Below, one piece after another: positions 23,192 through 49,804 of a DNA stretch of 64,000 nt. How positions within the stretch are numbered: the first letter of the stretch is position 1; each line of letters starts with the position of its first letter. The notes under the pieces were generated by a model, which was given only the letters and a program-made list of their open reading frames with translations, made no database searches and was not told the DNA's origin. The stretch is from Candidatus Latescibacterota bacterium. GTDB lineage: Bacteria > Latescibacterota > UBA2968 > GCA-2709665. The position numbers and the translations under genes were made by a program. The stretch covers positions 384,001 through 448,000 of the forward strand of contig OZ242358.1 of the NCBI GenBank assembly GCA_965208835.1, given 5' to 3'.

Positions 23192-23841
23192 CGATGGCGA
23201 TGCTGGGCGGATCGGCGGCGGCGGCGATTTATGAATCGGGGCCCGGGCAGATTCGTCCGGACGGTACAGCGAAGTGGAACCTCTACCTCTCGGTGGACAA
23301 TGTCGACGCCGTGGTCGGGCGGGTGGCAGCGAATGGCGGGTCTGTGCTGGCGGGTTCGAGAGACGTCGATCGCGCGGGTCGGGTGGCGGTGATCGCGGAT
23401 CCGACGGGCTGTGTGACGACGCTGTGGGAGCCCGGTGAGTTCGTGGGATGTGGCGTTATGGCCAAGGCAGGCGCGTTTGCCTGGTCGGAGCATCTGAGTA
23501 CGGATCGCGCGGCATCGGTACGGTTTTACGAGGAGGTTGTCGGTGTCGAGACCGAGACGGCTGGCGAGGAACATCCGGTGCAGTACTCGACCGTGCTGGT
23601 GGGAGACAAGGCGGTCAGCGGGATCATGCAGATGCCGGACCGGATGATCGAAGAAGGGGTCGCGTCCGAGTGGTACGTGTATTTTCAGGTTGCGGATTTT
23701 GACGAATCAGCGGGCTATGTGCAGAAGCACGGAGGGCGATTGATGGCTGAGCCGGACGACATTACCGGGTTCGGTCGAATGGTGGTCGCCCGGGACCCGC
23801 AAGGCGCCGACTTCTGCATCGTCCAGCCGGAGACGGGGTAG
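23192..23841 (+). pseudogene. C-terminal part of the split VOC/glyoxalase gene (may still be translated)
   Basis: WNLYLSVDNVD, GRVAVIADPTG, WYVYFQVAD, GRMVVARDPQGA; lacks the N-terminus found at 21528. Confidence 0.72.
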
Positions 23842-23872
23842 TCAAGCTGCCTGAACGATACAGTGCGTGAGC

Positions 23873-24610
23873 TCACGCGTTTCCGCCTGTCAGAATCGAC
23901 ACCACCTGTGGGACGGCCTCCTCCACGCATTCATCCACTTTTTCGCCTCTCATGGGTGCAGCGTGCACGCGCAGTTCGATATTCCTGTAGCCTGCGACGC
24001 CGTCAAGGGTGCTCGACCACGCGCCGGCTCCCGAAGGCCTGAACCTGGCCTCCAGTTCCTTTTGTGGATACTCCCATCGCAGGTCCATGCCGCGGTAGCG
24101 GACACGGTCCCCCTCCTTCACATCGTACATCCTCATTCTGCGGTGTACTCCGAAGTGAATCAACCTGCGATGCACGTTGTCCGGCTGCGGTCCGGCTTCC
24201 GCCCATCCTTCGACCAGGTAGTTTCCTGTCAGATGCGACAGCTTGAACCCATCACCATCGCGTTCGATCATTGGCACCCTGCCCGCGGCCGTGATGTAGG
24301 CGGTGGGGATGCCTCTCAACTCGAACTCCAGCATATCGTGCAAACTGCACGAACTGGCGCCGCATCAGTCCACGACCCCCATGACAAGCCCGTCGCACTG
24401 CGGAACGATTTCCTCCACAAGCTTCTTCGTGCAGACTCGGTAGGGCGATGACTTTTTCCAGGGTCCCACCACATTCGCGTCGTACTCCGCCGCAAGCCGT
24501 TCACCGACGCCATTGAGAACGGCCCCCGCTGTACGCTTTCCGGGATCCAGAAGTCCGATCCTGGCGCCGCTCAGACGGGTCAATCGTGATGCGGGTTCGA
24601 TTCTTGACAC
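23873..24610 (-). CDS. Candidate selenoprotein, UGSC-family-like, Sec82 from UGA at 24365-24367 (245 aa)
   Basis: ORFs 24365..24610 and 23873..24343 are in one frame: GVVD-TGA-CGASSCSLHD...RGIPT; AGGAG RBS; downstream hairpin. Confidence 0.8.
24336..24352 (-). promoter_or_regulatory. SECIS-like hairpin
   Basis: TCGTGCA-GTT-TGCACGA perfect 7-bp stem starting 12 nt after the UGA. Confidence 0.72.
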
Positions 24611-24831
24611 GGGTCATCTCCTTTCTGATCTTACCTTTCAGTTGCGGTCGGAATTTTCAGCGAGTAGGAAGAGTCACCGGCCGGATCGTGTTCGAGCGCT
24701 CCTGCCCTTGACTCCCGGCGAAATATAGCCAAAGAATGATCCTGTGTCTCGTACGAATTGGCATGATCATCCCCGGACGGGTACCCACGGCGCCGGTCGC
24801 CTTCGGGTGGCCGACGTTGCCTAGCGAACCA

Positions 24832-37565: not shown

Positions 37566-37773
37566 TTCGTCATTCCTTCCCCTGGTCTTTCCAGACGGGG
37601 AGCGCAGCTTCGAAGGCAGAGATCCGTTCCCGCAGAACGTCGTCGCTGTCGGCCTCTATGGTCTTCTCGAACCGGCTGGCGCGCAACTCGTCCCCGGAAT
37701 CCGTCCACATCGACGGACCGCTTCAGTCCGGTAGACGGGCGCGGACGTCTCACCAGGATCAGCGGCAACGCGG

Positions 37774-38232
37774 CTAATGGGAAACGTGGGCTTCCGGATT
37801 GCGATCCGCCACCAGATCCAGGGCAATTCCGTGTTCCAACCAGGCCTTGAGCGCGGCGAGGACGAGAGAGAAACCCCCCATGGAGTCCAGTGCCATGGCG
37901 ACGACCTCCTCCCCGGTCCCCCGGAACCCCGTGTTCGAGATCTCAACGAGGGTCGCTTCCGCGCCACGAGAGGTGAACCGCCACTCGACGGTCGTCGACG
38001 GCTCGTCCCATTCGATGAGAATCCTGGAGGGCGTCTCGATGGTCTTGACGTGGACGTCCGCGGAGGCTCCGTACATCTCCCACTCCCACGTAACCCCAGC
38101 GCCCGGCGCCAGCCTGCCGCTGCTCCTGGTGAACCAGAATCGGGTGGTGACGGCAGGATCGACGAACGCGTTGAACACTTCGTCGACTGGCCGACGGACC
38201 AGCATCTGTGCCTGAACAACAGGATCGATCAC
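37774..38232 (-). CDS. SRPBCC/AHSA1 domain protein
   Basis: VFNAFVDPAVTTRFWFT, GGFSLVLAALKAWLEHGI. Confidence 0.85.
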   Translation of the reverse strand: MIDPVVQAQMLVRRPVDEVFNAFVDPAVTTRFWFTRSSGRLAPGAGVTWEWEMYGASADVHVKTIETPSRILIEWDEPSTTVEWRFTSRGAEATLVEISNTGFRGTGEEVVAMALDSMGGFSLVLAALKAWLEHGIALDLVADRNPEAHVSH

Positions 38233-38244
38233 ATTTGCACCCTA

Positions 38245-38406
38245 CCAGCCCGTTGAAAAAGCCCATCCGGGCTGCGGCCGGCCCTTGCGGTCGAAATACG
38301 GCGTTGCGCGCCCTCGCCGAATCGCAGGATGGGACTCGGTTGCGCGCCTTGTCTTCGGCCACAATGGCTCAGCCTCGCCTGCAGAGCGACTTTATCAACG
38401 GACTGT
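38245..38406. mobile_element. MITE-like element family A, copy 1 (162 bp, TA-flanked)
   Basis: IR CAGCCCGTTGAAAAAG / CTTTATCAACGGACTG. Confidence 0.78.
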
Positions 38407-38431: not shown

Positions 38432-38905
38432 TTAACCGGACTCGCGCAGCGCCTTGATTACAGCCCCGCCGTGCCCGGCAGCCCGGGCACGTTTCCAGAC
38501 TTTGGTCAGAACTCCGTCCGGGCCGATGATGAACGTCGACCGCGTCATTCCCTCGAAGCGACGGCCGTAGAGGACTTTCTCACCCCAGGCGCCATAGCGG
38601 GTGGAGACGGTTGCATCGGCATCCACCAGCAGCGGAAACGGCAGCCGCTGGCTTTCCCGGAAACCCCGGTGCGAATCGGCATCGTCTCTCGAAACGCCGA
38701 GCACGACTGCGTCCTCATCCACGATTTCGGCGTGATTATCCCGCAATGAGCAGGCCTGAATCGTACAGCCGGGTGTGTTATCGCGTGGATAGAAATAGAG
38801 TACGACCGTCCTGCCCCTGTATCCGGCCAGCGAATGGACGTTGCCGTCCTGATCGGCAAGTTCGAAATCCGGGGCCGCATCCCCTGCCGCCAGCGTGATT
38901 GCCAT
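38432..38905 (-). CDS. bcp: Thioredoxin-dependent thiol peroxidase (BCP/PrxQ)
   Basis: LYFYPRDNTPGCTIQAC, GVSRD, RSTFIIG. Confidence 0.92.
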   Translation of the reverse strand: MAITLAAGDAAPDFELADQDGNVHSLAGYRGRTVVLYFYPRDNTPGCTIQACSLRDNHAEIVDEDAVVLGVSRDDADSHRGFRESQRLPFPLLVDADATVSTRYGAWGEKVLYGRRFEGMTRSTFIIGPDGVLTKVWKRARAAGHGGAVIKALRESG

Positions 38906-38930
38906 CGTCGTTCCTTTCTCCACTACCGTA

Positions 38931-39115
38931 GCAGCCCGTTGAAAAAATCCATCCGGTCTGCGGGTGGCCCTTGCGGTCGAAATACTGCGTTGCGCTCCCT
39001 CGCCGAATCGCTCGATTCGACTCGGTTACGCGCCTTGTCTTCGGCCACAATGGCGACATATTTCAGGGACGGGACACCATACCTCGCCTGCAGAGCGACT
39101 TTATCAACGGACTGC
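38931..39115. mobile_element. MITE-like element family A, copy 2 (with short internal insertion)
   Basis: Same IRs and body as 38245-38406; TA flanks. Confidence 0.78.
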
Positions 39116-39145
39116 TAACGACGCTGTCGAGAGCGCCAGTTGAGA

Positions 39146-41314
<2,169 letters not shown>

Positions 41315-48427: not shown

Positions 48428-49186
48428 TCACTCCGCGTCGAGGATGTAGCGCGCGAGCGGCGAGATCCGACGGGCGGTTTCGGGCCGCAGGTACTCGCGC
48501 TGGTTGGTCTGCTGCGGGTGCTCGCGGGCGATAAAGGCGCAATGCAGGGTGCGGCGAGGGGCGTCGCTGAGGTTACGGTACGAGCTGTGAAAGAGGCTCC
48601 CGTTGAAGATAGCGACCGAGCCGGCGCATCCAATCAGTTGTACCTGGTCCGGGTGATCGACCATGCCATCGGTTACGTGGTCGCGTATACCGCCAGGCTT
48701 GCGGTGGCTTCCCGGTACACAGCGGGTCGCGCCGTTGACCCGGGTAAAGTCGTCGAGCATCCACATCGAATTGACGACGTGATAGGGCCCGCCGGGCACG
48801 ATGGGTTGCCCCCAGTCCGCGTGCAGGCCCTGTAAGCCGCTTCCGGGCAGCGGATCGTGTCCGTTGAGCGAGTGCAGCTTGAACGGCCGCCGCAGGACGT
48901 GCCAGACCGCCGAGAGAAGTGTCGGCTGCAGGTACACATTGTCGAAGACCGCTCCCTTGTTGACCAGGTCGGCGAGGCGGCGCACGCCCTCCATCTGGGC
49001 GACTTCAGCGCCGGCTTTGTCGCCTTCGCTGGTGAAGATCTCGTCGAAAGCACGCCGCAGAGCGGCCAGCCAGTCGGGTGCGATGACGTCTTCAAGAATG
49101 ACGAAACCGTCGGCATCCAGCGCGTGGCATTGCGGCGGCGTCAGCGGCCCGGGGACAAAACCCCGATTCAACAATTCGCTGTCCAT
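48428..49186 (-). CDS. Phytanoyl-CoA dioxygenase (PhyH) family
   Basis: LHAD, NGATRCVPGSH, LFHS...RR. Confidence 0.9.
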   Translation of the reverse strand: MDSELLNRGFVPGPLTPPQCHALDADGFVILEDVIAPDWLAALRRAFDEIFTSEGDKAGAEVAQMEGVRRLADLVNKGAVFDNVYLQPTLLSAVWHVLRRPFKLHSLNGHDPLPGSGLQGLHADWGQPIVPGGPYHVVNSMWMLDDFTRVNGATRCVPGSHRKPGGIRDHVTDGMVDHPDQVQLIGCAGSVAIFNGSLFHSSYRNLSDAPRRTLHCAFIAREHPQQTNQREYLRPETARRISPLARYILDAE

Positions 49187-49213
49187 TGTGGATGATCCTC
49201 AGAAAAGTGCACG

Positions 49214-49804
49214 ATGCCACGTAGAAGCAGAGTCCTCGGCGTTGGCGATACAGCCCCCTTGTTTACCCTCCCCTCGCACCAGCAACGAGACGTGTCGCTG
49301 GCATCGTATCGGGAAAAGGAAAACGTCGTTCTGACGTTTTTCCGGGGGACCTGGTGACGCAGAAGCCGTCGTCAGTTGGCGATCGTACAGGAACATGTCG
49401 AAGCGTACGCAGAATGGAACGCGATGTCGATTGCCATCGGCGCAGGACAGCCGCCGGGCGAAATGCGCGAATACGCCGAAAGCAACGGCATCACCTTTCC
49501 GCTTCTGGCGGACGAAGACTGGAGCGTCATCAGAAGTTACGGGGTACGCCACTGGTTCGCCCTGGCGATGCACAACGTCGTCTACACCATCGTCCGCCCC
49601 GCGACGTTCGTCATCGACAAACTCGGCTTTGCGTTACATGAATGGACCGGCCTGGCGAATCACGGCCTGAGCAACAGCATTGCCCGACCAGCGACGTTTA
49701 TCATCGACAGACGCGGCGTGATCAGATATACGTACATCGGATCGAGTCAGTTCGATCTGCCCGAACAGCAGGAAATACTCGAACACCTGGAATCGCTGGC
49801 GTAG
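49214..49804 (+). CDS. Candidate selenoprotein, AhpC/TSA (peroxiredoxin-like) family, Sec48 from UGA at 49355-49357 (196 aa)
   Basis: Manual translation MPRRSRVLGVGDTAPLFTLP...VVLTFFRGTW-TGA-RRSRRQL continues in frame into ORF 49376..49804 (FPLLAD, RPATFIID..GVIRY). Confidence 0.8.
49367..49385 (+). promoter_or_regulatory. SECIS-like hairpin
   Basis: CG-TCGTC-AGTT-GGCGA-T-CG; upper stem starts 11 nt after the UGA. Confidence 0.6.

Follow-up and report, generated by a model that had tools for sequence, protein, structure and literature searches.

A probable cysteine-free selenoprotein gene of the AhpC/TSA superfamily, interrupted by an in-frame TGA, in a Latescibacterota genome

In a 64,000-nucleotide stretch of the genome of a Candidatus Latescibacterota bacterium (GenBank assembly GCA_965208835.1, contig OZ242358.1, positions 384,001 to 448,000 of the forward strand; hereafter the window), we examined a region that standard annotation splits into two short reading frames at a TGA codon. 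Comparison with related loci led us to conclude that positions 49214–49804 of the window very probably constitute one intact selenoprotein gene of the AhpC/TSA superfamily (peroxiredoxin-like, with a thioredoxin fold), which gene finders cut in two. In this gene the TGA would encode selenocysteine (Sec, U).

An intact reading frame across an in-frame TGA

The frame opens with an ATG at 49214 and runs for 47 sense codons, the ATG included, up to the motif F-F-R-G-T-W. The TGA at 49355–49357 follows directly, R-R-S-R-R-Q-L continues in the same frame, and no further stop is encountered until the TAG at 49802–49804. Translated through the TGA, the product has 196 amino acids (aa) and zero Cys. 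Under translation table 11 the same region is divided into a 47-aa open reading frame (ORF; 49214–49357) and a 142-aa ORF that starts with a TTG at 49376. The Pfam domain AhpC-TSA (PF00578) matches residues 10–172 of the read-through product, with the TGA inside the match (E=1.7e-26, 93 bits versus a cut-off of 26), and the Pfam domain Redoxin matches it as well (E=2.3e-17). A preliminary description of the region, made from its letters alone, had given the same start, codon count, motif and frame, had noted a read-through product without any cysteine and with no resolving Cys, and had called the product an AhpC/TSA-like selenoprotein. The coordinates and the cysteine count proved exact, and the family assignment is borne out by the domain match across the TGA. 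The conservation of that codon described below goes beyond chance.

Of the 87 clusters closest to the query in a protein search (E up to 4.7e-22), 84 covered only the part after the TGA, corresponding to 57–72% of its length, and the family hits from NCBI included no full-length one. Annotation that begins just after a TGA is what a missed Sec codon usually leaves behind. The truncated database relatives start with M-A-I/T-V-Q-E, and the N-terminal 47-aa pieces sometimes exist as separate database entries (P0176 and others).

Conservation of the TGA and selection on both flanks

A one-genome-per-species scan yielded 487 related loci, of which the best 80 were examined; together with the window they make up the 81 sequences analyzed below. 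The related loci share 50–93% protein identity. At the DNA level, the aligned codon is TGA in 79 of the 80. The remaining locus, L029 from Poribacteria, has TGT (Cys) and forms a single uninterrupted ORF, which provides a Sec/Cys pair at the site, and TGG was found in 0/80. In most of these loci the N-terminal part comprises exactly 47 codons and starts with M-P-R-K/R, and without exception the two pieces share one frame, with only the TGA and six codons between them.

The ratio of nonsynonymous to synonymous differences per site (pN/pS) was calculated for 46 codons upstream and 21 codons downstream of the TGA, after dropping locus L023, which is truncated at the N-terminus. For sequences with a URRS-type motif at the TGA (24 sequences, 276 pairs), the upstream value was 0.115/0.449 = 0.255 and the downstream value 0.200; for the UPNS-type (56 sequences, 1540 pairs), they were 0.114/0.651 = 0.175 and 0.278, respectively. 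When the two types were compared with each other, pN/pS was 0.231 upstream and 0.391 downstream of the TGA. These ratios indicate that the stretch before the TGA is translated and under the same constraint as the stretch after it, with purifying selection on both flanks.

Active-site motif and predicted structure

Full-length relatives that carry a sense codon at the site (38–41% identity) read FFRGTW-C-x-x-C-R-x-Q-L, the motif being CQHC, CPNC, CPSC or CPTC. They share the M-P-R-x-N-K start as well as the C-terminal I-A-R-P-A-T-F-I-I-D and G-S-x-Q-F-D blocks. A Cys stands at the position aligned with the TGA in all relatives compared, as C-x-x-C in P0129, P0133, P0135, P0136 and P0137 and as CPHA in P0131; P0133 and P0136 have CPNC where the Poribacteria orthologues have UPNS. 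Among the 79 rows used for the phylogenetic tree, the motif is URRS in 18 (the window included), UKRS in 4, URRT in 1, UPNS in 54, URNS in 1 and CPNS in 1 (L029), and loci L006 and L023, which are outside the tree, also have URRS. The residue three positions after the Sec is Ser or Thr in 81 of 81 sequences. As judged from this alignment, the first Cys of CxxC has given way to Sec and the second to Ser or Thr, resulting in UxxS/T. This agrees with the UxxS in place of CxxC that the preliminary description had proposed, together with an alignment of homologues for Cys/TGA correspondence as a way to check it.

Two further statements of that description held in part. The absence of the usual Pro from the motif is correct for the window's lineage (URRS) and incorrect as a trait of the clade, since the Poribacteria sequences read UPNS. 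The placement of Sec at the catalytic position is valid for CxxC-type redoxins, in which this is the first Cys, and fails for peroxiredoxins proper. When the protein is aligned with AhpE, a 1-Cys peroxiredoxin, Sec48 is paired with the Thr of T-x-x-C, Ser51 with the peroxidatic Cys and Arg44 with the Pro, so that the signature P-x-x-x-T/S-x-x-C is not kept and the protein has the fold, but not the active site, of a peroxiredoxin. Arg158 is invariant among 55 close relatives and is offset by one residue from the AhpE active-site Arg in the alignment.

An AlphaFold model was built from a 91-row alignment of 79 read-through orthologues and 12 CxxC-type relatives. It reached a mean predicted local distance difference test score (pLDDT) of 80.4 and a predicted template modeling score of 0.76, with pLDDT above 90 in the core, and in it Sec48 immediately precedes the helix 49–60. 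Among solved structures, the closest folds are those of Bcp4, AhpE and PrxQ, with template modeling (TM) scores on the target of 0.83–0.90 (0.85–0.90 for AhpE and Bcp4), followed by that of ResA. The only end-to-end match in NCBIfam is NF040769, 'SelL-related redox protein' (profile positions 2–172 of 173), with 46 bits against a cut-off of 120 bits; the glutathione peroxidase (GPx) family PF00255 was not among the four Pfam families matching at E up to 0.01.

Residues 116–153 form an insert that is confined to the window's lineage, the Poribacteria orthologues being without it, and whose modeled pLDDT lies below 50. It contains a partial copy of the R-P-A-T-F-[VI]-I-D-x-x-G block, in which 27 of 33 bases are identical as counted by eye from the DNA. 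The insert has a pN/pS of 0.50 versus 0.24–0.27 in the core (190 pairs), which indicates that it is faster-evolving than the core, yet not free of constraint. Two database proteins (P0045 and P0047) carry an even longer insert at the same site.

Probable selenocysteine decoding in the host

TGA is the main stop codon in the window, where it terminates 17 of the 28 Pfam-confirmed genes, and it ends 34 of the 81 family genes; genome-wide reassignment of TGA is therefore excluded. Ranking the 417 in-frame TGAs of the window by codon usage gave weak discrimination, with the redoxin TGA in 13th place, and was used only to choose candidates. When Pfam was run on the 15 top-ranked candidates, a domain extended across the TGA only in a gene of the UGSC family.

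The read-through product of this separate gene matches Pfam PF24696 over residues 6–109 (E=4.7e-25) and NCBIfam NF041046, 'UGSC family (seleno)protein' (E=1.8e-17; 63.7 bits, below the 125-bit cut-off), and both matches span U83. The surroundings of U83, putatively the family's own Sec position, read D-U-C-G-A-S-S-C. A perfect 7-bp hairpin with a G-U-U loop lies 19 nt past the UGA (-18.5 kcal/mol over 47 nt), and its top, C-A-G-U-U-U-G, is similar to the C-A-G-U-U-G of the redoxin gene. For all 27 database relatives of the UGSC gene, coverage is confined to the stretch past the TGA. Table 2 of PMC2398784 names UGSC-containing proteins as one of the major families of bacterial selenoproteins. 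The gene appears to offer independent evidence for Sec decoding by the host, and the two genes together argue that the window's organism uses selenocysteine.

The UGSC protein extends about 137 residues past the family profile and may carry an extra C-terminal domain; the table-11 ORF on the opposite strand (23867–24451, plus strand) is probably spurious. Among the other candidates, the two PhyH and ceramidase hits end before their TGA, and the read-throughs at 37656–38405 (minus strand) and 23744–24451 (plus strand) were rejected as Arg/Ser/Pro-rich, off-frame translations. A 187-aa ORF at 37656–38219 (minus strand) is likewise Arg/Ser/Pro-rich, matches no family and is probably not a gene.

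It would be conceivable that the UGA of the redoxin gene is read as a standard amino acid, either by genome-wide reassignment to Trp or Gly or by a near-cognate tRNA whose read-through is stimulated by the hairpin described below. We consider this very unlikely. Three full-length database proteins on contigs of 794–1449 nt (P0033, P0038 and P0044) do show a Trp exactly at the TGA position, and the window holds no Sec machinery; the Trp, however, most likely arose because the annotation pipeline applied a TGA=Trp translation table, and such records are a trap in any hunt for sense-codon homologues. Besides the use of TGA as a terminator, the lack of TGG at all 80 loci speaks against a standard amino acid, as does the fact that the sole sense codon found encodes Cys, the residue that the distant relatives have as well. 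A second in-frame-TGA gene of a (seleno)protein family in the same window adds to this.

RNA hairpin downstream of the TGA

The codons that follow the TGA, A-G-Y C-G-Y C-G-Y C-A-G T-T-G, are almost frozen. The Gln is encoded by CAG in 81 of 81 sequences, compared with 63% of the Gln codons elsewhere in the same genes, and the Leu by TTG in 81 of 81, compared with 18% of the Leu codons elsewhere. A hairpin can be drawn that begins 6 nt past the UGA, with its upper stem beginning 10 nt past it. Run unguided, RNAalifold recovered five of the hairpin's pairs. In the named structure 83.7% of the alignment cells are paired, versus 16–75.5% when the partners are slid, and the covariation score of 0.211 (shuffled mean 0.173) was matched by none of 500 shuffles. 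The pair at columns 15–28 is C-G in 34 sequences, U-A in 22 and U-G in 19. The natural hairpins have a mean free energy of -7.3 kcal/mol, versus +1.2 kcal/mol for synonymous recodings, and the natural value was the lower one in 81 of 81 sequences.

The criteria for a bacterial selenocysteine insertion sequence (bSECIS) given in the legend of Fig. 2 of PMC13188914 are a loop of 3–9 nt with a G in the first two loop positions followed by G or U, an upper stem of 4–16 bp, a distance of 16–37 nt from the UGA to the loop and a free energy of -7.5 kcal/mol or lower. The window's hairpin has a 4-nt AGUU loop with G followed by U, a 6-bp upper stem and a spacing of 16 nt, the lower limit of the range. 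Four of the five criteria fit, and the free energy is marginal. The SECIS prediction that the preliminary description had suggested as a check was thus favorable for loop, G-U, stem and spacing and borderline for stability. We infer that the hairpin, lying within the coding sequence, is a candidate bSECIS that would direct Sec decoding of the UGA.

A number of observations weigh against a selenoprotein gene with such a decoding signal. The 64-kb window contains no selA, selB, selD or tRNA-Sec; tRNAs of any other kind were not found in it either. Two of the 80 loci (L006 and L023) look damaged. The hairpin is a small one. For the window's 37 nt downstream of the UGA, the minimum free energy (MFE) of -7.4 kcal/mol narrowly misses -7.5, and the named hairpin has -6.1 kcal/mol; the cut-off is reached by 67 of the 81 sequences when the MFE is considered and by 49 of the 81 for the named hairpin. 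The RNA signal is visible only in the comparative and synonymous-recoding tests, since a 91-nt single-sequence fold around the TGA shows no stability in excess of that of shuffles (z=+1.41). Only two pairs vary on both sides; at least as many did so in 154 of 500 shuffles. Of 79 distinct rows, 22 break the pair at columns 16–27 and 74 leave the outermost A-N pair (columns 10–33) unpaired; this outermost pair is not real. The C-G to U-A switch tracks the two clades of the tree and, because it does so, may be a single event. Finally, the invariant TTG could be conserved as an internal start codon instead.

The latter possibility forms part of a reading in which the functional product is the 142-aa protein initiated at TTG 49376, with the 47 upstream codons as a separate small ORF or leader. 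We give this hardly any credence, even though the TTG is invariant and is the start chosen by gene callers in many assemblies, and the 47-aa pieces are occasionally annotated in their own right. According to the model, such a protein would have a thioredoxin fold deprived of strands 1–3 and of its active-site turn, and the Pfam domain needs residues 10–172. A start codon leaves the frozen CAG and CGY codons next to it unexplained, and both the constant frame and short spacing of the two pieces and the single uninterrupted ORF of the Cys variant L029 argue for one protein.

There is next to no chance that the gene is a pseudogene, in which a TGY-to-TGA nonsense mutation killed a CxxC redoxin and left the 142-aa ORF as a remnant: the split under table 11, the public annotations that retain only the C-terminal piece and the extra damage in L006 and L023 would agree with it, but the same TGA in 79/80 loci at 50–93% protein identity, the pN/pS of 0.18–0.26 before the TGA (as low as after it), the coordinated replacement of the second Cys by Ser or Thr in 81/81 sequences and the RNA constraint just past the TGA contradict it, and the synonymous divergence (pS 0.45–0.76) excludes one recent mobile pseudogene copied across loci. 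The preliminary description had held that additional frameshifts or relaxed selection in close homologues would mark a pseudogene; with purifying selection on both flanks and 78 of 80 loci intact, the comparison favors a real gene, in line with the selenoprotein reading.

Distribution, phylogeny and gene neighborhood

We built a quick tree with Shimodaira–Hasegawa-like approximate likelihood ratio test (SH-aLRT) support, containing 79 Sec-clade rows and leaving out L006 and L023. The 79 rows cluster together (SH-aLRT 99), surrounded by CxxC relatives on long branches, and this cluster splits into the URRS-type (23 rows, support 96) and the UPNS-type (56 rows, support 91). For L029, which lies within the Poribacteria clade, the direction of change between Sec and Cys follows from parsimony only.

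All 80 examined loci, the best of the 487, come from metagenome-assembled genomes (MAGs) of Poribacteria and of Latescibacterota/'Gemmatimonadota'. In the tree, rows with the label Gemmatimonadota are interspersed with rows labeled Latescibacterota (L001–L023, L031), and the neighboring genes in these MAGs are 83–97% identical to those of the window at the protein level. The two sets of MAGs look like one lineage under two phylum labels, and the real spread is that of two lineages, the window's and Poribacteria, represented mostly by sponge-associated MAGs, judging by the record titles. One Latescibacterota MAG contributes three of the loci (L006, L010 and L012), with a distance of about 7 kb between two of these copies. 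The near-invariant Trp114 is replaced by a second TGA in L006, and the N-terminus of L023, which comes from another genome, is degenerate; some gene copies may be decaying.

The PhyH genes that flank the selenoprotein gene are kept in the close lineage only, upstream in 11 of the 80 loci and downstream in 7 of the 80. In Poribacteria, ribD/ribE is found downstream in place of PhyH in all five loci sampled out of 56 (L026, L033, L044, L060 and L072). In these the selenoprotein gene lies 53–190 bp upstream of ribD on the same strand, and the riboflavin synthase gene (ribE) comes after ribD in four of the five, L072 having ribD only. As no neighbor is common to both lineages, synteny was dropped as a clue to function.

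In the window, only 27 bp (49187–49213) separate the start of the selenoprotein gene from a divergent PhyH-family gene (48428–49186, minus strand), and promoters must therefore overlap coding sequence; the same divergent arrangement occurs in 11 of the 80 loci. At 38432–41308 (minus strand), some 8 kb away from the selenoprotein gene, the window also encodes an ordinary Cys-containing PrxQ/BCP peroxiredoxin with the motif T-P-G-C-T (NCBIfam NF006960, 150 bits versus a 140-bit cut-off) and, adjoining it, a catalase-peroxidase-like protein (Pfam peroxidase, 720 aa). The features of the two in-frame-TGA genes are listed in Table 1.

Table 1. Positions of the predicted selenoprotein gene, its elements and the second in-frame-TGA gene, in window coordinates
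Feature	Position	Strand	Description
Predicted complete selenoprotein gene	49214..49804	+	196 codons including one putative Sec codon, then TAG; orthologues intact in 78/80 loci
TGA, probably read as selenocysteine (U48)	49355..49357	+	TGA in 79/80 loci, TGT (Cys) in L029; aligns with the first Cys of the CxxC of relatives
U-R-R-S motif (U48 to S51)	49355..49366	+	N-terminus of the modeled helix 49–60; variants across the 81 sequences
SECIS-like hairpin	49364..49387	+	2-bp lower stem, 1x1 mismatch, 6-bp upper stem, AGUU loop at 49374–49377
TTG (Leu55), start of the 142-aa ORF according to gene callers	49376..49378	+	Inside the hairpin loop and closing pair
Lineage-specific insert, residues 116–153	49559..49672	+	Partial copy of the RPATF[VI]ID block
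I-A-R-P-A-T-F-I-I-D block, residues 156–165, with Arg158	49679..49708	+	Adjoins the position of the peroxiredoxin active-site Arg
Second in-frame-TGA gene, UGSC family, separate	23873..24613	-	TGA at 24365–24367

Proposed mechanism and relation to known selenoproteins

The ancestor of the clade would have been a CxxC redoxin in which Sec took the place of the first, nucleophilic Cys and Ser that of the second. The selenolate at the N-terminus of helix 1 would act as the nucleophile and attack a peroxide, which would yield a selenenic acid, or a disulfide, which would yield a selenenylsulfide. Because the window's protein has no Cys to resolve either product, resolution would not be intramolecular, and recycling would depend on an external thiol, such as a small thiol, thioredoxin or glutaredoxin. 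In UxxT glutathione peroxidases and monothiol CxxS enzymes, a single reactive residue is likewise recycled by an external thiol or partner. A single-selenol enzyme recycled from outside is put forward tentatively, its prospects being a little short of even; the substrate and the reductant, like the insertion of selenium itself, are proposals of this scheme. A disulfide or mixed-disulfide reductase is as compatible with the present data as a peroxidase.

An AhpC/TSA selenoprotein of the cd02970 type with a UxxS motif is already included among the predicted prokaryotic selenoproteins in the table of a 2026 review (PMC13188914), where Zhang and Gladyshev 2007 (PMC1976440) is cited; the main text of PMC1976440 makes no mention of AhpC or of a UxxS AhpC/TSA family. 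Going by the entry in the review, the type has been catalogued and the window's gene joins it, and the preliminary description went too far in calling the single-Sec site unusual. Compared by description only, the catalogued protein and that of the window are alike in the AhpC/TSA superfamily, the single Sec and the UxxS motif. The catalogued protein belongs to the PRX-like-2 type, and the full-length, sub-threshold SelL-related match obtained here agrees with this; the insert and the URRS variant of the window's protein do not figure in its description. The review also gives UxxS for arsenate reductase and for a rhodanese form, and UxxT for GPx-like proteins; Table 2 of PMC2398784 gives UxxC for Prx-like 1–3 and TxxU for Prx.

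The Prx-like 1, 2 and 3 proteins of marine metagenomes, as described in PMC2398784, resemble the window's protein in their thioredoxin/Prx-like fold, in the Sec at the first CxxC position and in their marine origin. They keep the second Cys (UxxC, rarely UxxU), however, where the window's protein has Ser and no Cys anywhere. Peroxiredoxins proper (AhpE, BCP/PrxQ) provide the best structure and PDB sequence matches and share the C-terminal R-x-x-T-F-I-D block; in the Sec-containing ones (TxxU; PMC2398784; NCBIfam peroxi_PrxU), the Sec is listed at the peroxidatic position, three residues later than Sec48. GPx-like selenoproteins, going by their catalogued UxxT motif, share the thioredoxin fold, the Sec at the first CxxC-equivalent position and a hydroxyl residue three positions on, but there is no sequence-family kinship with them, and the resemblance concerns the motif and the presumed chemistry only. 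SelL and SelL-related proteins (NF040769) have the same domain architecture according to the end-to-end match, although its score is far below the cut-off. In the PRX-like-2/SelL-related CxxC redoxins, W-C-x-x-C stands at the start of helix 1, in contrast to W-U-x-x-S in the Sec clade. SelL has the motif UxxU.

Judging from titles, abstract openings and occurrence counts, we found nothing in the literature on Sec use in Gemmatimonadota or Latescibacterota. For Poribacteria, the same literature contained a single passing mention of Sec, in connection with hydrogenases, and the present clade was not found in print. Sec-containing hydrogenase variants from Poribacteria MAGs are described in a 2026 publication (PMC13582414).

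Implications

A bolder reading, which we regard as unlikely, would make the clade a distinct, undescribed selenoprotein family common to two unrelated lineages of sponge symbionts, Poribacteria and Latescibacterota/'Gemmatimonadota'. In such a family, a Prx-like scaffold would have moved its reactive center three residues upstream, lost every Cys and convergently re-created the chemistry of GPx (U-x-x-S/T), and the family would possibly have spread by gene transfer within sponges. If that were true, hundreds of public genomes would mis-annotate an antioxidant enzyme as a fragment.

Mis-annotation is systematic among the closest database clusters, nearly all of which retain nothing but the inactive C-terminal piece; as a result, too little of the redox and selenium metabolism of these uncultured lineages is counted. 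The protein would also be a clean natural case of a Cys-free, single-Sec enzyme with a thioredoxin fold, useful for asking what Sec alone does without a resolving residue.

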